Shown: positions 11,486-58,898, counted from the first letter of the stretch. The stretch is DNA of 64,000 nucleotides from Patescibacteria group bacterium (GCA_049322215.1 JBMORU010000001.1:755-64754), one strand, 5' to 3'. The notes: generated by a model from the sequence alone, not told the origin. Translations and numbers: made by a program.

Positions 11486-11662
11486 TTGACATTACCCCGG
11501 TGCAAATATAATATGTTTAAGCATTATCCGAAGACAGCAAGTTTCGTTTGCATGAGCGAATTAAATACCTTGCCGAGGAATCTTTTATATTTATTTGCCA
11601 ATTAAGGTTTAATAACTTTAGATTCACTCACGTCTTCGTGAGTATTTTTTTAGGGAAATTTT
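11486..11662 (+). promoter_or_regulatory. rplJ promoter (TTGACA at 11486, -10 TAATAT/TATAAT about 17 nt downstream) plus L10 leader with a terminator-like attenuator hairpin at 11626-11651 (ACTCACG-tctt-CGTGAGT then T7) just upstream of the start codon
   Basis: Near-consensus sigma70 hexamers are read directly. A 7-bp GC-containing stem followed by a run of 7 T lies 12 nt before the rplJ ATG. This is typical of the autoregulated L10 leader. Confidence 0.45.
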
Positions 11663-25815: not shown

Positions 25816-25890
25816 TGGTACCCTTGGAGGGAATTGAACCCACATCTCACCCTTAGGAGGGGTGTGTTCTATCCGTTGAACTACAAGGGC
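25816..25890 (-). tRNA. tRNA-Arg (anticodon CCU)
   Basis: Hand-folded. Acceptor GCCCTTG/CAAGGGT with G1-U72 wobble. D-arm GTTC/GAAC with A20. Anticodon stem CACCC/GGGTG with loop CUCCUAA. T-arm GTGGG-TTCAATT-CCCTC with one U-U mismatch. Discriminator A and CCA are encoded. Confidence 0.8.
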
Positions 25891-25975: not shown

Positions 25976-26065
25976 GGAGGAGTCGCATAGTGGTCTAGTG
26001 CGGCGGTCTTGAAAACCGCTATACCTGCAAGGGTATCGTGGGTTCGAATCCCACCTCCTCCGCCA
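25976..26065 (+). tRNA. tRNA-Ser (anticodon UGA), type II with a long variable arm
   Basis: Acceptor GGAGGAG/CTCCTCC. Anticodon stem GCGGT/ACCGC with loop CUUGAAA. Long variable arm. T-arm GTGGG-TTCGAAT-CCCAC. Discriminator G and CCA. Confidence 0.85.
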
Positions 26066-26090: not shown

Positions 26091-27017
26091 CTATCCATTT
26101 ACAGTTTCAAAATTTGGACTAGTTCCAGAAGCAGTGTTTAACTGAGAAAAATCTCGTTCAATACCTTCTTTTATAGCATTCCCAAACTCGGAATATATTT
26201 GTAATTCTTCCATAGCACCACGACCTGTCATTAGAATATGAGCGCTACGTAACCTTTCTATGTTAATAGGTTTGGTAGGATCACCTCCAAGTTCTTGCGA
26301 TAATTCTCCAACAAATTTTGAAAATGAAAATGTGCCGTCGAGCCCCATTGAACCGGGTCTCTGTTTCATAAGTTGTTGCAATTCCCTTCTGAATGTTAGC
26401 TTTGCTTCCTCTCTATTAATAAATTTTGATCTCGAGAGTTCTTGTACCTGTTTTAACTCTGCCTCATTAGGTACAAAAGGTATTTCATAAGGTTCTGGTT
26501 TTATTCCAAGCACTTCCCTTAATCTTTCTGTAACTGCTTTTTCTCTAGTAAATTCTGAGGAATAGTAATGGGATGCAGTTTGTGCAGTTTTACTAATATG
26601 CTGGTTTAACTTATATTTTAATGTATTTGCACATCCCAAAAAATCAGCGCGGGCCTCAGGTGTAAGTACTGCTTGCCCATCACTAATCATTTCAGGAGTA
26701 GTTTGTTGTGCATCAATCAATACCGGTAATCCCCCCTGCTCTACGGCTTGAGGATCAAATATACCAGCTTCCAATAAGCTAAGCTCTTTATCCAAACAAC
26801 AGGATTTTGAAAACATATTCATATATTCCGCTGAACCAGGGCGACCCTCATTAATTAGATGTTCTGCAATACTTTCTGTAAGTTCCGGAGTTTTTAAGGC
26901 ACTAAACCCCGCCAAAACCTCAGCATCTCTTTTAAAAACCTCAGTTCCAATTTTTATAGCACTTTCAGACTCAAGCAATGCTTTTCCTGCTTCACCTATA
27001 ATTGATTCTATTCCCAT
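26091..27017 (-). CDS. Hypothetical protein (308 aa, no recognisable domain)
   Basis: Long ORF with coding-like composition. No motif was recognised. Confidence 0.45.
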   Translation of the reverse strand: MGIESIIGEAGKALLESESAIKIGTEVFKRDAEVLAGFSALKTPELTESIAEHLINEGRPGSAEYMNMFSKSCCLDKELSLLEAGIFDPQAVEQGGLPVLIDAQQTTPEMISDGQAVLTPEARADFLGCANTLKYKLNQHISKTAQTASHYYSSEFTREKAVTERLREVLGIKPEPYEIPFVPNEAELKQVQELSRSKFINREEAKLTFRRELQQLMKQRPGSMGLDGTFSFSKFVGELSQELGGDPTKPINIERLRSAHILMTGRGAMEELQIYSEFGNAIKEGIERDFSQLNTASGTSPNFETVNG

Positions 27018-31872: not shown

Positions 31873-31920
31873 GGGGTTATGTTAGGTTAATTGTTAAAAC
31901 AACGCAAGGATATTTGGTTT

Positions 31921-32721
31921 CTATAAAGGAAAAACTACATTTCCTAAATAGGTCAAAAAGTACTTGTAGTCATAGCTTCTTAAATAAGTAATCACCTCTT
32001 TATCAGGGTGCCCAAAGGCATTTTCTTTCCCCACAGGAATAACAATATAATCAGGTTTATAAGCTTTAAATATATTAGTATTTAAACTTGCAAGCGAGCC
32101 ATGATGAGGAAACTTATATATAAGCAAGGGTTTTTGAGCCCAAGTGGGAGCAACTTCCCCTACTATATTATCTAAAACAGTGCTAGCCACGTCACCCGTC
32201 ATTAATATTGTAGTATTTGGAGATTCAATAAGCATAACTAGAGATAAACTATTTAAATCTTCAGAAAAATACCCGTTTGGAGGCCATAGTACTTTTATAA
32301 AAATCTCATCTATAGATAAAACATCGCCTCTTTGTAAAATGAATGTTTCGGTGGTTGCAGATGAAATAGCACGCAAATAATCGTCAGCTGCCACATAAAA
32401 ATTAGCAACATAAATGTTTTTAACATTACAATAGTTAACTAAACGACTTAATCCAAAATAATGGTCTTTATGAGGATGTGTGATAAAAACTGAATCTAGA
32501 CGACACTCATTAAACAAAAATAACTCAGATATATAATTAGAAACCTCAAAATTAGGCCCTGCATCTATTAATATTAATTTCCCTTTGCTGGTTTTAATAA
32601 GAGTGGCGTCGCCTTGTCCAACATTCAAAAAACTAACAAAAGGCTTTTTGTTTATTTGAGAGCAGTAAAACAGCAACTGAACAATAAAACCCATCAAAAG
32701 AAGTCCTAGTAATTTACGCAT
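31921..32721 (-). CDS. comEC: ComEC C-terminal metallo-beta-lactamase domain protein, encoded as a separate ORF
   Basis: FLNVGQGDATLI, ITHPHKDH and FPHHGS are MBL-fold motifs of the ComEC/Rec2 C-terminal domain. It overlaps the upstream competence-domain ORF by 8 nt in another frame. Confidence 0.65.
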   Translation of the reverse strand: MRKLLGLLLMGFIVQLLFYCSQINKKPFVSFLNVGQGDATLIKTSKGKLILIDAGPNFEVSNYISELFLFNECRLDSVFITHPHKDHYFGLSRLVNYCNVKNIYVANFYVAADDYLRAISSATTETFILQRGDVLSIDEIFIKVLWPPNGYFSEDLNSLSLVMLIESPNTTILMTGDVASTVLDNIVGEVAPTWAQKPLLIYKFPHHGSLASLNTNIFKAYKPDYIVIPVGKENAFGHPDKEVITYLRSYDYKYFLTYLGNVVFPL

Positions 32722-33745
32722 ATAGCCTATTTATTTTTTTGAATAAAATGATAATACCAAGTAAAGCTAAGTAATAAAGACAAAAAACAGGTTTAGAAAT
32801 GGTGAAGTCTAAATTCATATATGAAAGCCGACTAAAAAACTCATTTATTAAAACAAATGAGTTTACAGGTATAAATAGCAAACTACTAAACAATACTGCT
32901 AAGGCATTACTAACCCTGATAGAAACAAGAAATAAAATTCCAAGCAAAGTTGCAATCGAAATTGACCAAAGAGAAAAAAAATTTACTAAAGGACTTATTA
33001 TGCTAATTCTACCAAAAGTAATAGATATAAGTGGCCATACAAGTAACTGTGCGGCTATAGAACTTACTAAGTCCTCTCTCAACCACGACAAAGGAATGAA
33101 ATTAATTTTTGGCAGTGATTTTCCTATAGGGTCGGTAAGTAAGAATAGACCTAGTGTAGATAAAAAGCTTAATTGAAAACTTAAGCTGAACAAACTGCTA
33201 GGAGAATGAATCAACATTAGTAAAGCCACAATAAGCAATGAGTACAAACTTCCAACTGACCTCCCATATACCTTACCTGTTAAGGCAAATACTATCATTA
33301 GCCACGCACGCACTACGGGTGCCTCAAACCCAACTAGCCAAACATAAAGAATTAGTATGACATTTATAAAAAGGAAATTCCTTGGTAAATATATAGACCC
33401 AAATATGCTTAATAAAAGTTGCACCAATAACTGCACGTTGTAGCCAGATACCACAGCAACATGTATTGTTCCGTTTTCTATTAGCTGTTCTTTAAAAATT
33501 GGTACATTGTAAAAAAAGTCTGACCCTACAAGTAAACCAACTATTAATTCACTTTCAGGGCTTGGAAAGTAGTTTTTAATTTCATCGTAAATTTCGCTCT
33601 TAATAGAGTCTTGCTTAAAAATGGTATCTGTCTCAAGCTCAACAGACTTACATGAAAATTCATGAAAAATGGTCGGACAAAAAGTAAGCAATCTAAATAT
33701 AAGAATAATCATTAATGGAAGTATTACTTTTAAAACTCTACTCAA
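32714..33745 (-). CDS. comEC: ComEC/Rec2 competence-domain polytopic membrane protein (N-terminal part of a split ComEC)
   Basis: Polytopic membrane protein of 343 aa immediately between comEA and the MBL-domain ORF. This matches the canonical comEA-comEC arrangement. Confidence 0.5.
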   Translation of the reverse strand: MSRVLKVILPLMIILIFRLLTFCPTIFHEFSCKSVELETDTIFKQDSIKSEIYDEIKNYFPSPESELIVGLLVGSDFFYNVPIFKEQLIENGTIHVAVVSGYNVQLLVQLLLSIFGSIYLPRNFLFINVILILYVWLVGFEAPVVRAWLMIVFALTGKVYGRSVGSLYSLLIVALLMLIHSPSSLFSLSFQLSFLSTLGLFLLTDPIGKSLPKINFIPLSWLREDLVSSIAAQLLVWPLISITFGRISIISPLVNFFSLWSISIATLLGILFLVSIRVSNALAVLFSSLLFIPVNSFVLINEFFSRLSYMNLDFTISKPVFCLYYLALLGIIILFKKINRLYA

Positions 33746-34364
33746 AGCTAACTTCCTTGCTTATAGAATGTGCAGTATTTGAGGGCAAACCACTTCTTTC
33801 CAGAAAGTCATCTACAGAACCATAAGGTCGATTTTGTATAATTAAAGCTGCGTATTTTGGGCCTATACCCTTAAGTTCATCTAACTCAGCGGCAGAAGCA
33901 GTATTTATTGAAATTCTTGAATTCTGAGATACCTCACTAGTCCCTTCAAAAATGGACTCAGGCATAGAGTCTGAAATATTTACAGTGGCTTCAGTTAGCC
34001 AACTATCACTTAGCAGTGGAATATATACCTTACTACCAGAGGTAACTTTAGAAGCAAGAGACAAGTTTTTTTCTATCCAGGATAAGTCAGCATCAGGACT
34101 AAAACCCCCTGCAGTGCTAATTAGGTCAGACAATATAGTATTAGAAGGAACCCAATAAACGCTTGGTAAATTTATTCCACCTGATATATCAACAGGTATT
34201 AAATCTACAGAGGCTGTGGAATTTAAATTGGTATCAATTTCACTTGTGTTAGGATTTATTTTTTCGGTATATGATTCATTTCTTTTTTCTACAGCAAAGT
34301 AAATAAATAAAACGACGACTATACAAAACAACACACTACTAATAAGACTGAAAACTTTTAGCAT
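33738..34364 (-). CDS. comEA: ComEA competence protein (helix-hairpin-helix DNA-binding), membrane anchored
   Basis: INTASAAELDELKGIGPKYAALIIQNRPYGSVDDFLERSGL is the C-terminal HhH motif. N-terminal TM helix. Confidence 0.7.
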   Translation of the reverse strand: MLKVFSLISSVLFCIVVVLFIYFAVEKRNESYTEKINPNTSEIDTNLNSTASVDLIPVDISGGINLPSVYWVPSNTILSDLISTAGGFSPDADLSWIEKNLSLASKVTSGSKVYIPLLSDSWLTEATVNISDSMPESIFEGTSEVSQNSRISINTASAAELDELKGIGPKYAALIIQNRPYGSVDDFLERSGLPSNTAHSISKEVSFE

Positions 34365-34592
34365 TATTACAATTTACACATATTTAGTTGTACTAAAATG
34401 CTTATTATTCTATTTAAATTAGAGAATAATTACCGCACAAATATGTGCGGGGAATTTACCACTTATGTATTAATAACAAAATATCATTATTTTTCCCCGC
34501 AAAAATACCGCATTGTTATGCTGAATAAATGCGACACATTGCTACAAAACATTGAGCACTTATTTATAAAAACTTTTAATTGTTATGGAATA

Positions 34593-34931
34593 TTAGTTAG
34601 ATTCTTCTAAAGCTTCCTGCATAATCTCTTTAAAGGCATCATTCTTATTTAAGTCACGAAGCAATGAAACAATTTTGGTCTTATTTAGAGTATAAAAAAC
34701 TTCTCTTCCCTTTTTGTCACTTCTTAAAAACCCCAAAGAGGCTAAAACACGCAAATGATGAGAAGCTAGATTTTCCTCTACATTAAGATTTTCAGCAACA
34801 TCGCCTACATTTTTCCTACCGTCACTCAGCATGCTTAAAATCTTAAGTCTGTTTTTGTCTGATAGCGCTTTAGAAAGCTTTATTATATTAACCATTGTGT
34901 GTAATATACAATGAACATTAGAATATTTCAA
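34593..34931 (-). CDS. ArsR/SmtB family transcriptional regulator
   Basis: LSDKNRLKILSMLSDGRKNVGDVAENLNVEENLASHHLRVLASLGFL is a winged-HTH ArsR signature. Confidence 0.7.
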   Translation of the reverse strand: MKYSNVHCILHTMVNIIKLSKALSDKNRLKILSMLSDGRKNVGDVAENLNVEENLASHHLRVLASLGFLRSDKKGREVFYTLNKTKIVSLLRDLNKNDAFKEIMQEALEESN

Positions 34932-34941
34932 ACAATAAACA

Positions 34942-36543
34942 TTAGAATGTTTTTGCCCTAAACTGCCAAGCTTCTAATATGTGTTTGTCTACAATTGTTT
35001 TTGAATCCTCTAAATCAGCAATAGTTTGACCCAACTTAATTAATTTAAAATAAATACGCATTGAGAATTGATACTTCTTTTTTAATTCATTTAAAACATC
35101 ATAAGCCTCAGAAGAAACACTTAATAGGTCAGTAATCAAATTAAAAGGAAGCTTAGCGTTAGTAGAAAATGAATAGTTTTTATAACGATCCTTTTGCTTA
35201 TAGCGGGCATTGCTAATTTTATTTAGCAGTTCTTGAAAATTTACAGCAGACGGAAGCCTCTTAGTACTTAAATCTACTGGAGTTAAGTGCACTAACATAT
35301 CAAATCTATCTAAAATTGGTCCGGAAATTTTCTTAGTGTACCTAGTACGCTCAGAAACACTACATTTGCAGTCTATGCTTGGATGTGTTGAATACCCACA
35401 GGGACAAGGATTCATGGCAGCAACAAGCAGAAAGTTACAAGGAAAAACAGATGTTCCGCTAGCGCGGGCAAGGCGTACTGTTCCAGACTCTATAGGTTCT
35501 CTTAGAGATTCTATTACACTTCTAGAAAATTCTGGGAGCTCATCGAGAAATAAAACACCATTATGTGCTTTAGTAACTTCACCCGGCTTAAGCGCAGCTC
35601 CACCCCCTATTATACTGATATGAGAACTTGTATGATGTGGTGATCTAAAAAGCTCTTTAGAATTAAAAATAGGCCTTGTATTTTGTAGCGAAGAAATTTT
35701 CATTACTTCAAGCTTTTCTTCACTAGATAGTGGAGGTAACAGATCCAGTAGGGATTTAGCTAATAAAGTTTTTCCTACCCCCGGAGAACCGTACAGTAAA
35801 AGATTGTGATTACCTGCAGCTGCAATATGTAGAGCATGTTTAGCCTTATATTGCCCTATAATGCTAGTATATGCGGAAGCGGTAAAATTTAACGGAACTT
35901 TTTTGTCTGTTACATCAAACTCTGTGGGTTTAGTCGACAATCCAATACACTTGGATAATTTATAAGTGCCCTGCAAATGCGCATGTAGAGCAGTCAAAGA
36001 TTCTACTATATATACTTCACTAAATATATTAAAAAACTCTTGATATAGTTGCGCATTTTTTGGTAACAACAACCCAGTCGCATGCTGGTTTTTTGCAAAT
36101 TCAAAGAAAATAGGAATACCCTTTATATGACGTACAGTTCCATCTAGTGAAAGTTCTCCAAGTACTAATATTTCTTTGGGAAATTCTACTTTTAGTAAAC
36201 AACATATGATCCCCAGAGCAATTGGTAAATCGTAATAGGAACCGTTTTTTGGTACATCTGCTGGAGCCAAATTAATAGTAATTCTAGCTGGCGGAAAATT
36301 GATTCCAGAATTAAGCAAAGCAGTTCTAATGCGTTGTTTGCTTTCTGCAATTGCCTTATTAGGTAAACCTACAATATCAAAAGTTGGAAAACCTCTACTA
36401 GCAACATCTACTTCTACAGTAATAGGAATCGCACTTAATCCCACCAAGGCCGCAGAAGAAACTTTAACTAGCATAAAAAACCCCAGAAGACTCAAATACA
36501 ACACCTGCGACACATAAACTTGTTGTTTCAATAGATAAAACAC
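34942..36543 (-). CDS. comM: YifB/ComM family Mg-chelatase-like AAA+ ATPase. The real start is probably an internal Met near 36474; the ORF start overlaps dprA.
   Basis: ALVGLSAIPITVEVDVASRGFPTFDIVGLPNKAIAESKQRIRTAL is the Lon-like N-domain. GSPGVGKTLLAKSL is Walker A. Confidence 0.8.
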   Translation of the reverse strand: MFYLLKQQVYVSQVLYLSLLGFFMLVKVSSAALVGLSAIPITVEVDVASRGFPTFDIVGLPNKAIAESKQRIRTALLNSGINFPPARITINLAPADVPKNGSYYDLPIALGIICCLLKVEFPKEILVLGELSLDGTVRHIKGIPIFFEFAKNQHATGLLLPKNAQLYQEFFNIFSEVYIVESLTALHAHLQGTYKLSKCIGLSTKPTEFDVTDKKVPLNFTASAYTSIIGQYKAKHALHIAAAGNHNLLLYGSPGVGKTLLAKSLLDLLPPLSSEEKLEVMKISSLQNTRPIFNSKELFRSPHHTSSHISIIGGGAALKPGEVTKAHNGVLFLDELPEFSRSVIESLREPIESGTVRLARASGTSVFPCNFLLVAAMNPCPCGYSTHPSIDCKCSVSERTRYTKKISGPILDRFDMLVHLTPVDLSTKRLPSAVNFQELLNKISNARYKQKDRYKNYSFSTNAKLPFNLITDLLSVSSEAYDVLNELKKKYQFSMRIYFKLIKLGQTIADLEDSKTIVDKHILEAWQFRAKTF

Positions 36544-37318
36544 TAGGAGATAAGTTAGTTGCTTCTAGTAAAGTATCAAAATGCATTGGGTTATCTTTTA
36601 ATGCATTTAGTATTAATTTTTGATCCTTACTGAAATTATTTATCAAATTTTTGTGCGTTTCGGAAACCTTTATGTTTAGTAAAGCGAGCATATCTTTTCC
36701 TGTAGTTATAGGTAATGCGCCAGACTTTAGTAAAAAATTATTCCCACTATAACTAACATTAAAAACATCGCCAGGTATAGTCATTAGAATACGACTTAAA
36801 TTTTTACAATACTTGGCTGTAATTAATGATCCACTGTTTTTTCGCGCTTCTACAACTAAAACTCCCAAAGATAATCCGGCTACAATGCGGTTTCTTTTTG
36901 GAAACGACCATTTTCGTGGAGCTATATTGCCTGGGTGCTCAGATAAAACTAAAGACTCAGATTCTATAATTTTGTTATACAACTCAAAGTTTTCAGAAGG
37001 AACTATATAGTCAATACCTCCTGGTAGTACTGCAATAGTTTTCAAATTGTACTCTAAAGCTAATTTGTGCGCTTCAGTATCAATACCGCGCATAAACCCA
37101 GATACAATTGTCACATTTGTACCCACTAGGTCTTTGAATATCACATTTAATAATACTTTCCCATATGCGGTAACTTCTCTACTACCAACTACTGCAATAC
37201 ATTCATTGAACAAATCGTTGTTCCAAAATCCTTTGTAATACAGATTTTTAGGGGGATTACGTAAGCTTTTTAGTTGTTTGGGATAATCTACTGTATCTAG
37301 CAAAACACAATTTGACAT
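36464..37318 (-). CDS. dprA: DNA processing protein DprA (Smf)
   Basis: IAVVGSREVTAYGK...VSGFMRGIDTEAHKLAL...AVLPGGIDYIVP...IVAGLSLGVLVVEARKNSGSLITAKY. Confidence 0.8.
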   Translation of the reverse strand: MSNCVLLDTVDYPKQLKSLRNPPKNLYYKGFWNNDLFNECIAVVGSREVTAYGKVLLNVIFKDLVGTNVTIVSGFMRGIDTEAHKLALEYNLKTIAVLPGGIDYIVPSENFELYNKIIESESLVLSEHPGNIAPRKWSFPKRNRIVAGLSLGVLVVEARKNSGSLITAKYCKNLSRILMTIPGDVFNVSYSGNNFLLKSGALPITTGKDMLALLNIKVSETHKNLINNFSKDQKLILNALKDNPMHFDTLLEATNLSPSVLSIETTSLCVAGVVFESSGVFYAS

Positions 37319-37412
37319 ATTGAAAGACTATTCGAGGTTCAAGTTTCATACAAATACATTATTTCTAGTTAAAATAGATTGTTCATATGTAAATTTAAGA
37401 TATAATCACCGT

Positions 37413-38072
37413 ATGGATAAATTAATATCGGTAGATGCAATTATAAAGCACGCAAAAAAAGAAGGTATAGACTTTGGTAAAGGCAATCCTTATAACAGGT
37501 TGAGATATTATACAAAAATAGGTTGGTTACCCCACATGGTACGCAAAAAAAGCAAAGATGGCAGCACTAAAGGACACTACCCAACTTGGGTAGTTGAACG
37601 ACTACTCTTAATAGAAGACTTTAAAAAGCAAGGATTAAACAACGACCAAATAACTGAAAAACTCAAAACTAAAACTAAAGTTCAGACTTTGTTTAATGTA
37701 TTTGCTACACCCGAAATGAAAAATAGGCTTTTTATTTATCTATTAATAATAGGATTTGTATTTTTAATTGCGGCAGAGTTGGAAATAATAAATATAGGAA
37801 CATCTAAAAGAAATATAATTAATGTTAACGAAATTAGCACAACACAAATAATTGACTCGGGATCCGCCTACATACCTTTTGAAAAAAATGAGGTGTTCAT
37901 TCCAAACACAAAAGTGCAAATAACCTCAAAAATACATGTGACATTCAATGATGATTATTCACCTGCATCAAGATACTGGATAAAGGATGTAAAACCAGGA
38001 CAAGGCTTTATAGTAACTTTAGATACAGCAACAAGTAGAGATGCTGGCTTTAATTGGTGGATTTCTAATTAA
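37413..38072 (+). CDS. MerR-family-like HTH regulator fused to a membrane/extracytoplasmic region. The start is placed at the internal Met (MDKLIS); the ORF-track start is 37320.
   Basis: RLRYYTKIGWLPHMVRKKSKDGSTKGHYPTWVVERLLLIEDFKKQGLNNDQI matches the MerR lRyYe.iGLl.P....g.R.Y motif. A TM helix LFIYLLIIGFVFLIAA is present. TATAAT lies 7 nt upstream of the ATG, so the mRNA may be leaderless. Confidence 0.45.
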   Translation: MDKLISVDAIIKHAKKEGIDFGKGNPYNRLRYYTKIGWLPHMVRKKSKDGSTKGHYPTWVVERLLLIEDFKKQGLNNDQITEKLKTKTKVQTLFNVFATPEMKNRLFIYLLIIGFVFLIAAELEIINIGTSKRNIINVNEISTTQIIDSGSAYIPFEKNEVFIPNTKVQITSKIHVTFNDDYSPASRYWIKDVKPGQGFIVTLDTATSRDAGFNWWISN

Positions 38073-38223
38073 AACCTATCAAAACAGCGTATTCTCCATC
38101 TTCTCCCGTTAAGGGAATATACATTATTGACATTAAATACGTAAACCCTTTATGCTTTTAGTAGTTCAAATTTTCACCTGCCTGGGATAATTTAATCCTG
38201 TGGTTGGTTATTAGGGGTAATGT

Positions 38224-40575
38224 ATGGAATCAACCAAGATACAACAAAATAGAGAGACATTCATAGAAATGCTTTTAAATGTATTGCCTACAATACTTGC
38301 ATTTCTTGTGCCAATATTCTTTCTACCATTAACTTCAGAGTTTTTTGAGTTTAATAAATTAATGTTAATAACAGTATCAACAATTTTTATGCTTTTTGTA
38401 TGGGCATTAAAAATGTTATTTAACAAAAAAGTATATATGGCAAAATCAAGTATAGATTTGCCCTTAATGTTACTTACTGTAGTGTTTATACTGGCTACAG
38501 TTTTTTCTATAGATAAAACATCAAGTATTTATGGAAAGTACGGCAGATGGTTTCCTAGTGTTTCCGGTATTATCACACTGGTGTCATTTTATTATGTAGT
38601 TGCATCTAATACCGTAAGTGAAAAAATAATAAAAAATACAGTGTTTGCCTTTATATTTGGTGCAACTATCGCCTCAATTGTTGCTCTACTAAGATATTTT
38701 GGAGTTACATTAGGAAGTGCCGCCTTTTTACAGGCGCCTAATTTTACCCTAACTGGATCTGCCACAAGCACAGTAATACTTGCAGCCTTAGGTGCAGTTT
38801 TATCTGTAGTATTCTTGACTTACGAAAAATCAATAGCAGTTAAAATTCTTCTTGTTCAAACAGCTGCTGTTAACTTTATGGCAGTAGCTTTACTTAACTT
38901 ATTACCCGGCTGGGCAGTGCTAAGCGCTGGTTTATTAGGCTTTTTAATATTTGTTCCTATAAACAAAGCATTAGAAAATAAACAACATTTAACTGCACTG
39001 TTAGGCGTTGGCGTTGCCTTGGTTTTGGCATTACTTTTACCCACTTCAAGAGATTTAGTTGTAAATAATAATTATCCAAAGGAAATAACGTTAGGTGCAA
39101 GAGAATCATGGGTTGTAGCATTATCAACAGTTAGAGACTTCCCTGTGTTAGGATCTGGCCCTTCTACATTTTACTTGAATTTCCCTAGATACAGACCATT
39201 AACGTTAAATACAACAGAATTATGGAATATCAGATTCGATAAACCATTTAACGAAGTATTTGGGATAATGGCTTCTATAGGAATTTTAGGGTTATTAGCT
39301 ACAGCATTCTTTGTTTACAAAACCATTAAATTCTTACTTAATCACAGAGAATTTGAAGACGAAACAGGAACAACAGCAGCATTGAATATAGGAATAATGG
39401 CATTACTAGTTTCGTACGTATTCACCTATGCAACAGTAGTATCTACATTTACACTCTTCCTGTTTTTGGCCATGGCGGTAGCTAAATCAGCTGTTAATGC
39501 TAAATCAAAACATGCTGAAATAGTATTGTTAAGTTTAAGCGCTTCCAGTTTTTCAAGTATGTCAATAATTGGAAGTTTTCAAGACGGAAACAAAAGGGAA
39601 AGCTTACAATACGTTATAGCCTTACCTATGCTATTAGCCTTACTCGCAGGGGGATACTTATCATTTAAGGTATACGCAAGTGAGTACTACACACGTAAAG
39701 CTATTAAATCTTTACAAGCTAATAATGGAACCGCAACATACGATTTCCAAAGCAAAGCTATTAAATATAACCCAAGAAGAGATGTGTATAGAAATGCATA
39801 TGTTCAAACAAACATAGCCCTAGCCAATACATTGGCAGCAAACGAAAACTTGTCAGATAGCGACAAAGCTACAATTCAACAATTAATAGCTCAAGCTATA
39901 CAAGAGACAAGAACTTCAACAGAGGTACTAAACCCACTAAACGTTGGTGCTTGGGAATCAAGAGGTCAAGTTTATAGAGCCTTGATCGGAGTTGCTCAAG
40001 AATCAGATACCTGGGCAATAAGATCATACAGCACGGCAGTGCAGCTAGATCCAACAAACCCAAGGCTAAGAGTTGACCTGGGCGGGATATATTACCTAAA
40101 AGGTGATTACTTATCTGCAGCAAACCTATTCAGAGAAGCAACTAGACTAAAACCTGATTATGCGAATGGCTACTATAACCTAGCTAATGCCTTAAAGCAG
40201 CTTAATGCCCCTCAGGATGCGCTTAAGCAACTTGAGATAGCTCAAAGACTTGTAGAAGCAGGAAGCCCTGATGCTGAAAGAATAGCCGCTGAAATAGAAG
40301 CGTTAAAAGCTAATCCAACAGTTGCTGGAGTAACTACTCAAACTGGCCCAACAGTAGAAGAACTTGCACAACAAGGTTTACCCGAAGAACAAAAAGAAGA
40401 AACCGCACCGCAGGAACCTTTATCTATACCCAGAGAAAATAATTTATTAGAGGCGCAAGACCTTCAAACAAACACTGAAAATAACAGTACTGAGACCGAA
40501 ACAAAATCAGAGGGCACACAGCCTAACGAACAAGAAAACCAACCAATTGAAGTAGTAAACAACGAAAATCAATAA
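38224..40575 (+). CDS. O-antigen ligase-like (Wzy_C) polytopic membrane protein with C-terminal TPR repeats
   Basis: About 12 TM helices with the periplasmic-loop motif RDFPVLGSGPSTF typical of O-antigen ligases. The C-terminal 300 aa carry TPR-like repeats (..YYNLANALKQLNAPQDALKQLEIAQRL..). Confidence 0.55.
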   Translation: MESTKIQQNRETFIEMLLNVLPTILAFLVPIFFLPLTSEFFEFNKLMLITVSTIFMLFVWALKMLFNKKVYMAKSSIDLPLMLLTVVFILATVFSIDKTSSIYGKYGRWFPSVSGIITLVSFYYVVASNTVSEKIIKNTVFAFIFGATIASIVALLRYFGVTLGSAAFLQAPNFTLTGSATSTVILAALGAVLSVVFLTYEKSIAVKILLVQTAAVNFMAVALLNLLPGWAVLSAGLLGFLIFVPINKALENKQHLTALLGVGVALVLALLLPTSRDLVVNNNYPKEITLGARESWVVALSTVRDFPVLGSGPSTFYLNFPRYRPLTLNTTELWNIRFDKPFNEVFGIMASIGILGLLATAFFVYKTIKFLLNHREFEDETGTTAALNIGIMALLVSYVFTYATVVSTFTLFLFLAMAVAKSAVNAKSKHAEIVLLSLSASSFSSMSIIGSFQDGNKRESLQYVIALPMLLALLAGGYLSFKVYASEYYTRKAIKSLQANNGTATYDFQSKAIKYNPRRDVYRNAYVQTNIALANTLAANENLSDSDKATIQQLIAQAIQETRTSTEVLNPLNVGAWESRGQVYRALIGVAQESDTWAIRSYSTAVQLDPTNPRLRVDLGGIYYLKGDYLSAANLFREATRLKPDYANGYYNLANALKQLNAPQDALKQLEIAQRLVEAGSPDAERIAAEIEALKANPTVAGVTTQTGPTVEELAQQGLPEEQKEETAPQEPLSIPRENNLLEAQDLQTNTENNSTETETKSEGTQPNEQENQPIEVVNNENQ

Positions 40576-40593
40576 CAATAACGTAAAACTAAA

Positions 40594-40632
40594 ACCCCCA
40601 AGCATAAAACAAGTTTGGGGGTTTTTTGTTGC
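40594..40632 (+). terminator. Intrinsic terminator
   Basis: CCCCCAA-gcataaaacaag-TTTGGGGG followed by TTTTTTG. Confidence 0.65.
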
Positions 40633-40709
40633 CTCACAAATTTTTAATAAAAAGCCCCCGACTGAAAATATAAATAATCAACCGAGAGCCTATAAAATAA
40701 AAGCGCCTC

Positions 40710-40853
40710 TTAGCTTTTGGTATTGAGTGCTATAACTAACGGGCACTTAGTGCATCCCTTAGCGCAAGTGGGCAATTTCTTTTTTTTCTCTTCTTTCTTT
40801 TCCCCTTTTTCCTCTACAAGGGTACCGTTTGTCATACTTACCTTTGAACTCAT
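40710..40853 (-). CDS. Small (47 aa) Lys/Glu-rich peptide with a C-terminal Cys cluster, possibly a metal-binding miniprotein or RiPP-like precursor
   Basis: MSSKVSMTNGTLVEEKGEKKEEKKKKLPTCAKGCTKCPLVIALNTKS. RBS AAGGAG lies 7 nt upstream of the ATG. It is shorter than the ORF-track M1 start. Confidence 0.35.
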   Translation of the reverse strand: MSSKVSMTNGTLVEEKGEKKEEKKKKLPTCAKGCTKCPLVIALNTKS

Positions 40854-40986
40854 AGCTATCTCCTTTTTTGTGTAGAAAGTAAAATAATTATATAGACGAA
40901 TGTCTATGTGTAAAGGTTTTAAAAATAAAAAAAGCCAACCTTTGAAATCACAATGTATGAATTCAAAAGTTGGCAATAAGTGGTTA

Positions 40987-41247
40987 CTAACGAAGGAGTT
41001 CAATGTCTTCAGCACCAACTTTGGCACCGTAGGCAATTGCTTCCTTCAACGCATACTCAGAAGTTATGGGCTTGTTAGATACTACATCTACCCACCCATC
41101 GTCACCTTTTGTTGCTGTAAAATGCTTTTTTTGCTCAGGATTGAAGGTTACAGTAATACTTGGCCAGCCTTTTTCCCGAGAAAAACAGTCAACGAAGGCA
41201 GCGTCAGTTGAAACTTCAAAGCTTTGTTGCCCAATAAAATATTTCAT
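40987..41247 (-). CDS. Hypothetical protein (86 aa)
   Basis: Strong RBS AAGAGGA 5 nt upstream of the ATG. The third gene of a three-gene minus-strand operon. Confidence 0.5.
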   Translation of the reverse strand: MKYFIGQQSFEVSTDAAFVDCFSREKGWPSITVTFNPEQKKHFTATKGDDGWVDVVSNKPITSEYALKEAIAYGAKVGAEDIELLR

Positions 41248-41256
41248 TTGATCCTC

Positions 41257-41412
41257 TTTACTTTGGTTTTTTTGTTAAATCGCCACCGCAGTTGGGACAA
41301 AATTTCTTCTTTTTGGGAACGTTGAACAGCCTTCTGCAATGAGGACAACGCTTAGCACCCTTACGTACAATGGGTACAGGTCTAATTGGAGCGCCGGGTA
41401 TTTCAAGTGGCA
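41257..41412 (-). CDS. Zinc-ribbon miniprotein (51 aa), not in the ORF track because it is under 60 aa
   Basis: Own translation: MPLEIPGAPIRPVPIVRKGAKRCPHCRRLFNVPKKKKFCPNCGGDLTKKPK with CPHC...CPNC. GAGAGG lies 5 nt upstream of the ATG. Start and stop are coupled to the upstream gene (TAAaaATG). GC-rich. Confidence 0.4.
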
Positions 41413-41414
41413 TT

Positions 41415-41891
41415 TTAACCTCTCAAGTTTTTGATCCAGGCCATCAGGGCTTGGGGAGCGCTTGTTAAAGGTAATCTGTACAGGAAAATTCCCGCAGGTT
41501 CCTCGTAGCGCTCAAAAACCATATTGTACAAAGGCATACCGTTTTTACCCCACCTAGCTACCCAGTCGGGACTGTTGAATTCGGTCTCAAGCCAAAGTCG
41601 ATGTGTAGGGTACCGTCGCGTTTCGGTTAGAAAAATGTGTACCTTATCCGCTTGGGTCATAATTTTGACTTTTGCAGGACGGCCAAAAACAGCATGAAAA
41701 GAACCTTGCTGCTTGTCAACCCAGGCAATTGTGGCAGAACGACCATCTATTACTAACAAATGGCGGTTCTTAGCTACATGAAGGATAGGATATCCCGAAG
41801 GGGATCTTTCATCTGCCAATACCGCACCGCGTGTCCCTGCAAGCAAAGGCAAGGCAACCGTTTCGGCTACAGTTTTTGCAAGTCTGCTCAT
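41415..41891 (-). CDS. Hypothetical protein (158 aa), GC-rich (about 55%) relative to the neighbourhood
   Basis: Long ORF with strongly different base composition from flanking genes. No domain recognised. Confidence 0.5.
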   Translation of the reverse strand: MSRLAKTVAETVALPLLAGTRGAVLADERSPSGYPILHVAKNRHLLVIDGRSATIAWVDKQQGSFHAVFGRPAKVKIMTQADKVHIFLTETRRYPTHRLWLETEFNSPDWVARWGKNGMPLYNMVFERYEEPAGIFLYRLPLTSAPQALMAWIKNLRG

Positions 41892-42211
41892 TTTTATCTC
41901 CTTATTTATTGATTTAGGGCTATATTTAAACCCATTCTTTAGTGATATTTATGACAAATTATACATGAAATTGCATATTAAAGCAACCTATAGTGTTAGA
42001 ACCCACCACTGTTTTTAATAATAAGTAGAAAACAAACACACAAATAAGAATTTTGTTGAAGAACTTAAAAAACTCTAAATGAATATAAGAAAATATAAAA
42101 CCTTGGTGAACCGCAATGTGGAATATTTTTATCTTAAGTTCATATTGGCAACAATTGTAGACAACCCTGATGCTATAGGGTATACTACAATCATATTCTG
42201 GAGGTAAAAAA

Positions 42212-42559
42212 ATGAAAGATGACAAAGGCTGGAACAAATATGGACCAAAAACCTTTAACGGGATAGAGGTACGTATGGCGCTTTTAAACGAAATTTGTGG
42301 GTTTGTTATTATAGAGGTATCCCAAAACAGAGACCCTAAAATAACTGATTTTGAAGGATCAATGAGAGAAGCAGTAACCGAGATGGAACTGGAAGCTTTA
42401 ATTGATGCTTTTAAAACCTTCGCAAAGCACTGGTTGTCATTTGAAGCGCCTAGACCAAAGATTGTTGGAAACTTCAAGAAACTTTTTGAACCTTTGGCAC
42501 TGCTTGATTTTGAGAACTTGCCTGCACAAATTAAAGCTTTTGACTTTTCAACACTGTAA
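42212..42559 (+). CDS. Hypothetical protein (115 aa)
   Basis: RBS GGAGGT 8 nt upstream of the ATG. Coding-like composition. Confidence 0.5.
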   Translation: MKDDKGWNKYGPKTFNGIEVRMALLNEICGFVIIEVSQNRDPKITDFEGSMREAVTEMELEALIDAFKTFAKHWLSFEAPRPKIVGNFKKLFEPLALLDFENLPAQIKAFDFSTL

Positions 42560-42766
42560 TATTTATACCTGTAAAGTTTTCTTTAAAAACCTAGGAGAAC
42601 TTTGCAGGTATTTTTTTTTAATTGGAAGGAAGTATAGAAAAACCTCAAACTTTGAGGGCAATTCATCACTATAAGTTAGGCTATACATTAATGCAATGTC
42701 ACATATCCTAGCAAAACTAGAAATCCCTTTAGTGCATAAATACTAAGCATATGAGATCATTGCACT

Positions 42767-43018
42767 GTGTATTACAAAGTAAAAATTAAAACTATGAAGT
42801 ATATAGTGCTTACCTACTGTGTTTTGACGAAAAATATAGCGGGAGCTATGAAAATGTATGAGAAACTTTTCAATAAATACCTATCTAAAGTAGACACACC
42901 TGAAGCATTTGATATATGGAAGGATATACAAGAAACAAACCTCGGAAAAACTTTTAATAATAGGTTAGGAAACCAGAATGCCAGTGAGAATTTTGTAGAA
43001 AAACTTAAAAAACTATAA
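42767..43018 (+). CDS. Hypothetical small protein (start uncertain)
   Basis: ORF only. Possibly starts at the internal Met (MKMYEKL). Confidence 0.3.
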   Translation: MYYKVKIKTMKYIVLTYCVLTKNIAGAMKMYEKLFNKYLSKVDTPEAFDIWKDIQETNLGKTFNNRLGNQNASENFVEKLKKL

Positions 43019-43020
43019 CT

Positions 43021-43320
43021 TTACAGTTTTATTGACTCCAAGTCCCCAGATTCCAAATGGAACAAAATATCACACAGTGGATATACAGAGGTTTTTAGCA
43101 TGTGGTGAATTGGCTCGGCTTCAAAAATGTTACCAATTTCATAGGCAACCATATCAGGCAACTCCCCCGCGTACCACTCCTTATAAACATTCGTAAGAAA
43201 CGTATCGGTCTTGGAAACGTTTTCAGCAGACAAGTTGGTAAGATCAAGATTGCTCTTCTTAATATAATTAAGGGCATCTTCAGAAAACTTTTCTATTTGT
43301 GCATCGGTAAATAAATTCAT
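43021..43320 (-). CDS. Hypothetical protein (99 aa)
   Basis: ORF with coding-like composition adjacent to the tRNA-Ala 3' end. Confidence 0.4.
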   Translation of the reverse strand: MNLFTDAQIEKFSEDALNYIKKSNLDLTNLSAENVSKTDTFLTNVYKEWYAGELPDMVAYEIGNIFEAEPIHHMLKTSVYPLCDILFHLESGDLESIKL

Positions 43321-43389
43321 AGTAATTCAATAATATACTACTAAATAAGTAAAAAGAAATGTTAAAAACTCTAAGGAAATGTAAGAAAA

Positions 43390-43465
43390 CATGAGGTCAT
43401 GGTGGACCGTACCGGGTTCGAACCGGTGACCTCTACTATGCCATAGTAGCGCTCTACCAACTGAG
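43390..43465 (-). tRNA. tRNA-Ala (anticodon GGC)
   Basis: Acceptor GGGCCGT/ACGGTCC with the diagnostic G3-U70 pair. D-arm GCTC-AGTTGGTA-GAGC. Anticodon stem CTACT/AGTAG with loop AUGGCAU. T-arm ACCGG-TTCGAAC-CCGGT. Discriminator A and CCA are encoded. Confidence 0.85.
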
Positions 43466-43538
43466 CTAACGGCCCTCACCTTAATTTAACTTTGCGCTAC
43501 GACTGCCTACGGCAGTCTAATGCGCTCTACCAACTGAG
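43466..43538 (-). pseudogene. tRNA-Ala 5'-half pseudo-copy: acceptor 5' strand plus complete D-arm (27 nt identical to the functional gene), followed by an unrelated 7-bp hairpin instead of anticodon and T arms
   Basis: GGGCCGTTAGCTCAGTTGGTAGAGCGC is repeated exactly at 43512-43538. Downstream there is no TpsiC loop and no 3' acceptor strand. It contains the hairpin GACTGCC-gta-GGCAGTC. Confidence 0.5.
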
Positions 43539-43561
43539 CTAACGGCCCACAAGTAAAAACA

Positions 43562-49792: not shown

Positions 49793-51241
49793 ATGAAAAC
49801 GCAAAAGAAAGGTTTATTGGCTTTGTTAGCCACGATCGCGGCGCCTTTAATGCTGATTGGTGCTTTTTTGACCTTAGGCAGTGAAGCAAACGCGCAAGTT
49901 CAGGCCTCAGCAGCTCTGGTTATCCCCCTTTCTACTGACGCCCCGGTAGCAGATGCAAATCCTGTCACCGGAACCGGCGAACAGTGTTGGGACGATGCCC
50001 CACGGATTGTTGATGGAAAACTGTACGATATCTGCGTTGGCTGGAACTACGCCTCTGGTGGAGCATTGAGTACGCACACCATTTGGGCCCCACAATGGCA
50101 AACGGATGCTTTCACAAGAACAATGTGGGGAGGAAATGTTGAAATGGTTGTACAATACAACGACGGCTATACATGCAGCGGACAGTCAGCGAAAGTTGAA
50201 ACTGGGCTAACTCATGCAGTTGTAGCTGTAGGCACTGGCGGCGGTAATATTGGATTTGGACCTGGCGAAGGAGCAGTTTGCGAGCACGAGGTGACGGACT
50301 TTAACACGTACGTTTTTCTTCTCACAAACGTGATTTCTGGCACCGAATTCCAAGTTCTTTCTGACGGCTTCCCTGTGTATGAGGAAACGCTACATGGTGG
50401 TTTGGCCTTTACAGTTACTGCTTCAATTCCCACCTACGCGGAATGGTCTTTGATTCAAACAAACTTGACCCCTCCTGGAGGTGAAGCTGTTCAATCTAGC
50501 CAAGGGTATACATATAATCCCAATCCATCAGAACCTCCTGTGGTACCCGAACTGAATGTCTCTTTGATCACGCCGGTGTTACTCACACAACCTATCACTG
50601 ACACAAGCACGACAGTTGCAGACAACAACGACATTTGCTACAGCGCGCCCGCGGTAGGCTACCTAAGCAACGCATCTCTTCCTGAATGTGTACGGTTCGA
50701 AACTTCGGCACCTACCTCTACGATCGAACTGTTCTACACACCGGAAATGGTAGAGACCAACGGAGATCAAACACTGTGGACCTTTGACCCGGCCAATATG
50801 GATCTCATTGTTACTTACGCTGATGGCACCCAGATGATCTGCGATAGTATCTACATCGTGCCTGGCCCCATGAAAATCGAAGTTATCGGCCAAGGCAGTA
50901 TCGGTCAAGGTGGTGGTGTTTCTGATTCGTGCAACTACGTGCCCGCCTTCCCCATGAAGAAATTCGGCATCAACGTAGCAAACGTCTCGGAACCCACATC
51001 TGTTGTGATGGCCTATGGAGAAAGCAATCCAGAAATCCTGACAAGCCAAACCATCACTACCGATACAGAAATCGTCGTAGAAGTTCCAACCTACCAATGG
51101 ACGTACGTGAGCACCTGGACCTGCGACGCAAACACGGCGCTTATCGGTGGCTTATGTGCACCTTCGCAAGCAGAAGTATCCGGCTGGATGTACTTGCCCC
51201 CGCAACTTACATTCATGCCTGTCGTGTTCAACAACCAGTAA
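49793..51241 (+). CDS. Secreted hypothetical protein (482 aa), GC-rich (about 50%)
   Basis: Signal peptide MKTQKKGLLALLATIAAPLMLIGAFLTLGSEANA. No sorting signal. Composition is distinct from its neighbours. Confidence 0.5.
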   Translation: MKTQKKGLLALLATIAAPLMLIGAFLTLGSEANAQVQASAALVIPLSTDAPVADANPVTGTGEQCWDDAPRIVDGKLYDICVGWNYASGGALSTHTIWAPQWQTDAFTRTMWGGNVEMVVQYNDGYTCSGQSAKVETGLTHAVVAVGTGGGNIGFGPGEGAVCEHEVTDFNTYVFLLTNVISGTEFQVLSDGFPVYEETLHGGLAFTVTASIPTYAEWSLIQTNLTPPGGEAVQSSQGYTYNPNPSEPPVVPELNVSLITPVLLTQPITDTSTTVADNNDICYSAPAVGYLSNASLPECVRFETSAPTSTIELFYTPEMVETNGDQTLWTFDPANMDLIVTYADGTQMICDSIYIVPGPMKIEVIGQGSIGQGGGVSDSCNYVPAFPMKKFGINVANVSEPTSVVMAYGESNPEILTSQTITTDTEIVVEVPTYQWTYVSTWTCDANTALIGGLCAPSQAEVSGWMYLPPQLTFMPVVFNNQ

Positions 51242-57827: not shown

Positions 57828-58898
57828 TTAATCGTCCGTGCTAACAGTTGCATCAATGTGAGTAGGATCCAACGTAATGCCGCGCTCTTCGCAATAGGTT
57901 ACAGCGAATTCAGGATCCAAGTTGGCCGGAATACCTTTGTCTTCAATGCGTTCGCAATATTCCACCCGAAGCTGTTCAGCCCACAACATCTCAGCTTGTT
58001 CATAGAAGGCTTGTGTGCTGGGGCGACATACAGGAATTTTGGTTCCTTGATCGTTGATATCACCCCACGGTCCAATCGTGAACTTGGCAGCGGTCTGTCC
58101 AGGGCTGTTGTGAAAACCCAGTTTGATATCGATGCCGGGCAAAAGTTCAACACTACCACAGTTGGTTTGCATTGGCTCACCCGGATACTGAACGTTAATC
58201 CAGCTACCAGCGACTGCCCATGCAGACAAACCATCATTTGAAGGTAAGCCCATACCTTGCGGATCACCCTCAAAGTATAGTTGCTGCAAATAGGTAGAAT
58301 GTGTCACCTCTTGCTCCAAATCGCCATTGAAGTAGTCAAAACGACCATAGTGCAGTGTAACCGTGTAAGAGGCGCCACCACTCACTTCAAACTGGTAACA
58401 GTCCGTGAACAATACACCGGGTGCCGCATCAGGAGCATTACCCTCAACTACATGCGGGGTACCCCACTGACAGACAACATTTTCGGTGCTTTCCCAAATT
58501 TCGGGTTCTTCAAACGTGGCATCCATACCGGCAACCAAACCAGGTACAGCACGACCATATTGAAGAGCAGCATCGAATTCTTCTTGCCTAAAGGTACCTT
58601 CCACAGGGACTTCAACTTCGACCTCTACCGGAACTTCAACGATCCGCGTGGCTTCAACTTCAACCTCAATGCGTTCTACAATGGTTGTAGCAGTCGCAGC
58701 AGGCATAGCTTCGGCCTCGGCGGTTTCAGCTTCCGGACGGTTGTTCAAAGCGTTCTGAACAGATTCCCCATCAATCGTCGCAATGGCCGTAGGCTCACCG
58801 AGATCCAGGGGGACTTCAGTGTTTTCCTCGCCACAAGCAACAACAAACAGAGCGAAAACCAATACCAATACAAGTAAGATCCAATTCTTTTTAGACAT
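57828..58898 (-). CDS. Lipoprotein (lipobox FVVAC), GC-rich, acidic
   Basis: MSKKNWILLVLVLVFALFVVACGEEN. A repetitive VEVEVPVEVEVEV segment. GC is about 50%. Confidence 0.55.
   Translation of the reverse strand: MSKKNWILLVLVLVFALFVVACGEENTEVPLDLGEPTAIATIDGESVQNALNNRPEAETAEAEAMPAATATTIVERIEVEVEATRIVEVPVEVEVEVPVEGTFRQEEFDAALQYGRAVPGLVAGMDATFEEPEIWESTENVVCQWGTPHVVEGNAPDAAPGVLFTDCYQFEVSGGASYTVTLHYGRFDYFNGDLEQEVTHSTYLQQLYFEGDPQGMGLPSNDGLSAWAVAGSWINVQYPGEPMQTNCGSVELLPGIDIKLGFHNSPGQTAAKFTIGPWGDINDQGTKIPVCRPSTQAFYEQAEMLWAEQLRVEYCERIEDKGIPANLDPEFAVTYCEERGITLDPTHIDATVSTDD

Follow-up and report, generated by a model that had tools for sequence, protein, structure and literature searches.

A probable composite, lineage-specific islet of seven small genes at the 3′ flank of tRNA-Ala(GGC) in a Patescibacteria genome

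We analyzed a 64-kb stretch of the genome of a Patescibacteria group bacterium (GCA_049322215.1 JBMORU010000001.1:755-64754), hereafter referred to as the window, using the NCBI record of the metagenome-assembled genome (locus tags ACOZAO_) as the public annotation. Our analysis focused on an islet of small genes adjoining a tRNA-Ala(GGC) gene, which is located on the minus strand at positions 43400-43475 (detected by ARAGORN and, with a score of 65 bits, by the Rfam tRNA model) and whose 3′ end, at 43400, faces the islet. The end of obg, at 43562, lies 86 nt upstream of this tRNA gene. The islet itself occupies 40640-43399 (2.76 kb); it begins at the tRNA 3′ end and runs from 43399 downward, in the position typical of tRNA-targeting elements, as far as the terminator of a convergent gene for a 783-amino-acid (aa) TPR/O-antigen-ligase-like protein (TPR783). 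A hairpin with T-runs on either side was read in the sequence at 40591-40627, and a scan flagged a terminator-like site at 40618-40635; this hairpin probably acts as a terminator in both directions, serving TPR783 and p47, which converge on it, and would mark the distal edge of the islet. Seven small open reading frames (ORFs), designated p99, p54, p115, p158, p51, p86, and p47, are found within the interval. An earlier reading of the sequence (hereafter, the original prediction) had placed a cluster of small genes next to tRNA-Ala(GGC), and this arrangement was confirmed. The islet was recovered in full, at 99.2% identity, from a second, independent sample (Logan ERR15087771, L002), and an assembly artefact is therefore excluded.

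The ORF closest to the tRNA is p99 (43021-43320, minus strand), which encodes a strongly acidic protein (isoelectric point [pI] 4.45) and has a codon score of 0.19, with every other frame scoring negative. It lies within a cassette (43019-43360) flanked by imperfect 14-nt repeats of the form TTAAAAA(A)CTMTAA at 43004-43018 and 43361-43374. Convergent with p99 is p54 (42854-43018, plus strand), preceded by a GGGAG motif 9 nt upstream and called as 54 aa in the NCBI and Logan annotations. The original prediction had listed an 83-aa gene here; the corresponding ORF does exist (42767-43018, plus strand, GTG start at 42767), but translation most likely starts at the ATG at 42854, which yields 54 aa. 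Further along the same strand is p115 (42212-42559), which has a GGAGG ribosome-binding site, a promoter-like site at 42158-42186, and a codon score of 0.30. The predicted 99-aa and 115-aa ORFs on mixed strands thus correspond to p99 and p115.

The next three ORFs form a minus-strand operon. Its first gene, p158 (41415-41891), encodes a basic protein (pI 10.1), has an AAGGAG ribosome-binding site, and is preceded by a promoter recognized by eye (TTGCTT-17-TGTATAAT at 41958-41986). Its GC content is 47.4%, not the approximately 55% first reported, and its GC content at third codon positions (GC3) is 0.43. The second gene, p51 (41258-41413), specifies a very basic (pI 10.5) CPHC...CPNC miniprotein whose ATG, preceded by GAGAGG, is located 1 nt past the p158 stop codon (TAA-A-ATG) rather than the 3 nt originally given. 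Its identification as a zinc ribbon held up, given that it contains two CxxC knuckles and exceeds the Pfam gathering cut-offs of both DZR (PF12773; 30.2 bits versus 27.3) and Zn_Ribbon_1 (PF13240; 26.0 bits versus 25). This miniprotein is unannotated in the public record and is not in a 15-billion-protein collection. The third gene, p86 (40987-41247), encodes an acidic protein (pI 5.0), has a codon score of 0.35, and has an AGAGGA ribosome-binding site that overlaps the p51 stop region. With intergenic gaps of 1 nt and 10 nt and one promoter for three genes, translational coupling of this operon, including its 86-aa third gene, was borne out. Finally, p47 (40710-40853, minus strand) is a separate K/E-rich peptide gene, annotated in the NCBI record, with a promoter-like TTTACA-16-TATAAT (40887-40914) and an AAGGAGA ribosome-binding site. 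The peptide is present as predicted and contains the motif PTCAKGCTKCP, but it does not end at ...KCP, continuing instead to ...KCPLVIALNTKS.

Canonical Shine-Dalgarno motifs at the right spacing precede six of the seven ORFs, and good sigma-70-like promoters are associated with p47 and p115. The codon score of the annotated frame exceeds those of all five alternative frames for every ORF but p51; the weak scores are those of p51 (-0.04) and p47 (0.08). In addition, the 15 substitutions that separate p99 in two strains show a third-position excess and a pN/pS of 0.29. Judged from these sequence signals, the cargo genes look coding, intact, and expressed. The islet had been likened to a decayed element, and this description fits in that mobility functions are absent, but not with respect to the cargo, which has promoters, strong ribosome-binding sites, and coding-like codons.

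With the aim of placing the islet in a comparative context, we examined the locus in eight related lineages, whose Obg proteins are 60-66% identical to that of the window; the closest Obg among 5.8 billion proteins is 66% identical. A contig scan with the single Obg protein returned no relative, and among the matches listed for a scan with an Obg alignment, most belonged to distant phyla and L010 was useful. The backbone Rho-LysM/M23-Obg-tRNA-Ala-TPR protein-MerR-DprA is kept across the eight lineages (in its fuller extent, with a sortase before Rho and ComM after DprA), and an ortholog of tRNA-Ala(GGC) lies between Obg and TPR/MerR in all eight. The original prediction had proposed asking whether this interval is empty elsewhere, and it is empty in three lineages, where the tRNA 3′ flank measures 8-89 nt. 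In L010, Obg and the tRNA share one orientation and MerR opposes them (12 nt); in L094, Obg, the tRNA, and TPR are all collinear (89 nt); and in L098, Obg is followed by the tRNA, TPR, and MerR in the opposite orientation, and then by a forward DprA (8 nt). Five lineages, the window counted, carry 0.6-4.6 kb of cargo instead. L092 has one 101-aa ORF between the forward tRNA and an opposing TPR gene. L090 and L091 have a MazE (MazE/AbrB) plus PIN pair after the forward tRNA, followed by the contig end. L009 has genes for a VanW-like protein of 616 aa and for a protein of 432 aa between Obg and an inverted tRNA and TPR, and L097 has five ORFs (4.6 kb) between Obg and an inverted tRNA, which is followed by an AAA_14/DUF4143 gene and TPR. 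In the window, the seven ORFs (2.76 kb) lie between the forward tRNA and the opposing TPR and MerR genes, followed by DprA.

The main cargo lies on the 3′ side of the tRNA in five of the five cargo-bearing lineages, including L009 and L097, in which the tRNA is inverted, so that the cargo separates its 3′ end from Obg. The cargos are unrelated to one another: tblastx revealed no similarity among them, and none of the relatives' cargo matches the islet proteins of the window. In all five lineages, the GC content of the cargo is higher than that of the locus. Synteny together with the degenerate scar described below supports a lineage-specific islet at the tRNA 3′ end, as had been predicted.

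A repeat search (families D1 and D2) combined with alignment uncovered, at 42013-42113, a 101-nt sequence that the original prediction had missed and that we refer to as the ghost. It is a collinear, ~78% identical copy of three segments: the 3′ end of p54 (42952-43018), the spacer next to the tRNA (43375-43399), and the last 10 nt of the tRNA (43400-43409). The tRNA end, TGGTGGACCG (43400-43409), agrees with its copy, TGGTGAACCG (42104-42113), at 9 of 10 nt. The ghost is without the p99 cassette and holds one copy of the cassette's 14-nt repeats. Its Smith-Waterman score is 50, compared with a null mean of 10.2 (standard deviation, 1.8; maximum, 17; n = 820 window segments), and either half on its own also reaches significance. 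A direct repeat of the tRNA 3′ end had been sought by eye near 40.6-40.7 kb; there is none there, but there is one at 42104-42113, within the ghost. At ~78% identity, this copy is probably no longer functional as an attachment (att) site. In L090, independently, the 3′ end of the tRNA recurs at 14 of 15 nt in front of the toxin-antitoxin (TA) pair, 105 nt downstream of the tRNA itself.

The position of the ghost splits the islet into module A (42114-43399; p99, p54, and p115) and module B (40640-42012; the p158-p51-p86 operon and p47), which share no residual similarity past the 101-nt ghost. They also differ in composition: module A has 33.6% GC and is backbone-like, whereas module B has 40.7% GC. 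Within the latter, the operon reaches 45.1% GC versus 37.1% for the window, with 6% of equal-sized windows being as GC-rich, and the GC3 of p158 compares with 0.27 ± 0.07 for reference ORFs. The predicted composition shift inside the islet is therefore real (33.6% GC over 42114-43399 versus 45.1% in the operon), with part of the islet being atypical. We infer that the islet is composite, with module A the younger and module B the older part.

Comparison of the window with its sister strain revealed recombination at the same place. Between the window and L002, 22 of the 23 differences are concentrated in a patch at 43144-43399 (22 nt in 256, 8.6% divergence), which spans the N-terminal half of p99 and the spacer up to the tRNA, as opposed to 1 nt in 2517 over 40627-43143; in the flank at 37131-39851 (compared with L007), there is 1 nt in 2721 (99.96% identity). 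Read from its sequence, the patch is a homologous-recombination import from a lineage ~9-20% diverged at neutral sites, which implies that this donor lineage, not yet sampled, also has p99 next to tRNA-Ala, and demonstrates that this locus undergoes recombination with an endpoint at or in the tRNA. A recent transfer of the islet between diverged strains was ruled out, since the flank is also 99.96% identical and the divergence is only a local patch. A diversity-generating retroelement was likewise ruled out as the source of the patch in p99, given that the substitutions are not adenine-specific.

On the other side of the tRNA, the duplicated tRNA 5′ half noted in the original prediction is present as a pseudo-copy at 43522-43551 (minus strand; repeat-search family D6), 11 nt after the Obg stop codon. 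It is 97% identical to 43449-43478, and its exact 27-nt stretch (43522-43548) aligns at 27/27 nt to tRNA positions 1-27. Directly after it, at 43494-43521 (minus strand), come ATTAG, a perfect 7-bp hairpin (43501-43517), and GTAGCGC; the RNA fold of this segment, of the form GCGC....hairpin...GCGC, has a z score of -2.1. The same order, i.e., pseudo 5′ half, ATTAG, hairpin, and G(T/C)AGCGC, is common to the window (43494-43551) and to L090/L091 (Obg ~60% identical), with copies at 11406-11507 in L090 and at about 2196-2297 in L091. The position of the hairpin is the same and its sequence is different, L090 having ATTAG, a 4-bp hairpin, and GCAGCGC. In L090, the pseudo 5′ half sits in a ~102-nt tandem unit comprising the upstream region and the 5′ half. 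This arrangement was not found in the six other relatives, and when metagenomes were scanned for the pseudo-half junction AGTTGGTAGAGCGCATTAG, the two matches were chance ones inside unrelated coding DNA. An Rfam scan returned the tRNA only, apart from one sub-threshold antisense-RNA match, which was ignored. The pseudo 5′ half and its hairpin could be a shared scar that gene conversion has kept alike; alternatively, they could serve the obg-tRNA transcript as a functional element for its processing or termination.

Collectively, we consider it reasonably probable that the region is a composite, lineage-specific accessory islet that accreted at the 3′ flank of tRNA-Ala(GGC), where insertions have recurred in this Patescibacteria clade, and that is now immobile. 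At least two or three steps would be required, and stepwise accretion at the tRNA 3′ end would be the most economical history. Module B may have arrived first, behind an older junction of tRNA end, spacer, and p54-like sequence. A second event in or at the tRNA 3′ end would then have placed module A (the spacer, p54, and p115) beside the tRNA, displacing the old junction by 1.3 kb, where it would have decayed into the ghost. The third step may have been either the entry of the p99 cassette into module A or its loss from the ghost, in both cases between the 14-nt repeats. The accretion could have been site-specific and tandem, catalyzed by an integrase that acted in trans and has since been lost, or it could have proceeded by tRNA-anchored homologous or illegitimate recombination of incoming DNA after uptake; the data are equally compatible with both routes. 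The integrase-free route is compatible with the locus in that genes for DprA, a ComM-like Mg-chelatase, a ComEA-like HHH/SLBB protein, and ComEC with a metallo-beta-lactamase domain adjoin it, at 31900-37320 beside the islet backbone. This competence-gene block is also kept in L010 and L098.

Several observations weigh against stepwise accretion at the tRNA. As the original prediction had stated, the islet contains no integrase. Scans of its ORFs, of 20 further window ORFs, and of the cargo in all four cargo-bearing relatives found no integrase or recombinase, and the precomputed Pfam assignments of the neighbours list none. Taken alone, the 10 nt of tRNA at the core of the ghost fall short of significance, with 4.4% of random 200-nt windows scoring as well, and no att-like repeat was found at the distal boundary (40560-40760 examined). 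Homologue searches for p115, p99, p86, p54, and p47 covered family libraries, PDB sequences, viral contigs, and the fetched loci. Moreover, the relatives are distant (Obg at most 66% identical), and differences in content could arise by any process over such a long time. The tRNA is also not the sole variable point, as small accessory genes are inserted elsewhere on the backbone: p179 between Rho and M23 in the window, PIN-type TA pairs just upstream of Obg at 9243-9921 in L090 and 7347-7997 in L097, EamA, likewise upstream of Obg, among the accessory insertions of L090/L097, and an AAA_14/DUF4143 ATPase on the 5′ side of tRNA-Ala in L097 (13951-15237). Insertions upstream of Obg and at the tRNA 5′ side indicate that the whole Obg neighbourhood accepts small insertions.

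With respect to the hallmarks of tRNA-targeting elements, an empty site is present in relatives, albeit distant ones (Obg 60-66%), and no recombinase lies next to the att-like sequence. We have not classified the islet as an integrative element, because a search for an integrase, the defining gene, found none. The suggested resemblance to an integrative element was not supported in the classical sense, as neither an integrase (in the islet, the scanned window, or the relatives' cargo) nor a distal-boundary repeat was detected.

Site-specific accretion at tRNA or tmRNA gene 3′ ends gives rise to tandem genomic islands and cis-mobilizable elements (CIMEs), as described for ICESt1-related elements (PMC5704250) and the ssrA islands of Dehalococcoides (PMC3146451). 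The islet shares with them its location immediately 3′ of an RNA gene, an internal direct repeat of that gene's 3′ end that parts two modules, the absence of integration or transfer genes from either module, and variation of the site between relatives. Module A is enclosed between the tRNA end and the ghost copy, which, at ~78% identity, would probably not act as an att site any more. Unlike in those elements, the repeat in the islet is short (10 nt of tRNA) and degenerate, with the similarity running ~90 nt into non-tRNA DNA; there is no outer-boundary repeat and no cognate integrase in the 64 kb or in the relatives' cargo; and the modules measure ~1.3 kb each, in contrast to many kilobases.

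The locus also invites comparison with three other phenomena. In the type II TA cassette found at the equivalent site in L090 (MazE/AbrB-PIN), small coupled genes, a promoter of their own, a tRNA 3′ flank, and opposite charges are shared with the islet, whereas no islet protein of the window matches toxin or antitoxin families. Prophages or integrative elements can leave remnants at tRNA genes, in the form of tRNA-linked islets and integration scars; the islet is similar to these in its adjacency to a tRNA 3′ end, the partial tRNA copies nearby, its partly atypical composition, and its absence from the site in relatives, but it has no phage- or integrase-like gene or pseudogene (PHROGs and Pfam negative), and its cargo looks intact and expressed rather than decayed. 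In homology-facilitated illegitimate recombination during natural transformation, a conserved gene serves as a one-sided anchor. Here, the conserved tRNA may be such an anchor, no integrase is needed, DprA, ComM, ComEA, and ComEC are encoded beside the locus, and the strain-level patch ends in or at the tRNA; for this locus, however, the mechanism is inferred only, with no donor sequence or junction microhomology identified.

The main rival to accretion at the tRNA is a local origin by slippage duplication and orphan-gene turnover. According to this explanation, which we regard as rather unlikely, the region is an ordinary, fast-evolving spacer that received no horizontal insertion, its ORFs arose or diverged in situ, and the ghost and the 5′-half copy are relics of slippage or unequal crossing-over. 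The ~102-nt tandem duplication in L090 is slippage-like rather than site-specific, and the lack of any mobility gene in the islet or the scanned window ORFs, as well as the other small insertions scattered over the backbone of relatives, also speak for such a spacer. The same applies to the rarity of homologues. A search of 1.84 billion representatives yielded for p158 a single true homologue, P0005 (144 aa, 30% identity over the full length; E = 1.5e-6 library-wide and 5e-17 pairwise), encoded on another AT-rich contig of the same sample, and the 90%-identity clusters of the islet proteins hold this lineage's own sequences only, bar P0016. The latter, a 603-aa CheA listed as a cluster mate of p54, is a clustering artefact. 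HMMER matches of p158 to NHL/Big, DUF11, WD40, and similar repeat proteins were discarded as summed-repeat artefacts, and only P0005 was kept. On the other hand, a tandem segmental duplication would have left similarity between modules A and B, of which there is none beyond the 101-nt ghost. The GC-richness of the cargo relative to the backbone in five of five lineages and the elevated GC3 of p158 are likewise at odds with an origin in situ, as are the fact that the cargo tracks the tRNA 3′ end in both tRNA orientations and the occurrence in L090, at the corresponding site, of a TA module of a standard mobile type.

A more far-reaching reading would combine three elements: loading of the tRNA-Ala 3′ flank with unrelated, GC-richer ORFan cassettes without an element-encoded integrase (with competence-driven, tRNA-anchored recombination as the candidate process), an undescribed conflict system formed by p158-p51-p86 and possibly p47, and a functional RNA made up of the pseudo 5′ half and hairpin. 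We regard this combination as unlikely.

A function in defence, proposed with the original prediction as a defence or toxin islet, could take the form of a new three-gene conflict system, in which p51 would be a basic zinc-ribbon nucleic-acid binder between a basic (p158) and an acidic (p86) partner, and p47 a cysteine-rich toxin or a peptide resembling ribosomally synthesized and post-translationally modified peptides (RiPPs). The tight coupling of the three genes behind one promoter, their complementary charges, the MazE-PIN pair at the equivalent L090 site, and the strong promoter-like site of p47 are in line with this possibility. However, none of the islet proteins matched a known toxin, antitoxin, or defence profile: searches with Pfam, NCBIfam, PHROGs, and PADLOC (0 matches in the last) gave nothing but the generic zinc ribbon of p51, and the proposal found no support there. 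PDB sequence searches provided no credible match for the islet proteins, p86 included; metagenome and viral scans with p158 and tblastn against phage genomes gave no match, nor did viral scans with p115, p99, and p86. P0005, the homologue of p158, is solitary, i.e., without zinc-ribbon or p86 partners, and no modifying enzyme (radical SAM, LanM/LanBC, YcaO, etc.) that would go with a RiPP precursor adjoins p47 in the islet or its flanks, p47 itself matching no family. The AlphaFold models (for p158, a predicted local distance difference test [pLDDT] of 37 from a two-sequence alignment; for p86, 50 from a single sequence) are too poor for testing folds. Taken together, a three-gene defence or TA system appears very doubtful, and our best guess, held with low confidence, is that the cargo serves strain-level accessory or conflict functions.

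It is highly improbable that most of the small ORFs are chance ORFs in a non-coding spacer, since the weak codon scores of p51 and p47, the missing public call for p51, and the lack of homologues for most of the ORFs in the searches made are set against canonical Shine-Dalgarno motifs in six of seven, a coding frame that beats its five alternatives for all but p51, the substitution pattern of p99, the full-length homologue of p158, the passing of the DZR gathering threshold by p51, and an ORF density that is high for a 37% GC genome.

Variable islets linked to tRNA genes belong to the textbook knowledge of bacterial genomes, so that in itself the finding is ordinary, and it makes no long-standing question newly testable. 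The locus is mildly useful for understanding Patescibacteria in that the 3′ flank of one tRNA turns over between lineages within a conserved backbone, with no integrase in five cargo sets, and in that strain-level recombination ending at this tRNA is documented. If the cargo is functional, its orphan small proteins, including an unannotated zinc-ribbon miniprotein, would join the poorly known accessory repertoire of these episymbionts.

Additional features were observed elsewhere in the window. Two ORFs without a Pfam match, of 482 aa (49793-51241, plus strand) and 356 aa (57828-58898, minus strand), coincide with its GC-richest patches (~0.49-0.50 versus 0.37) and may be further atypical or surface-protein genes. 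A 308-aa ORF at 26091-27017 (minus strand), also with no Pfam match and not an integrase by Pfam, adjoins a divergent pair of tRNA genes, tRNA-Ser (25976-26065) and tRNA-Arg (25816-25890). Finally, a ribosomal protein L10 leader (Rfam RF00557, 54 bits), an ordinary feature, is located at 11510-11659 (plus strand), upstream of the L10/L12 genes.

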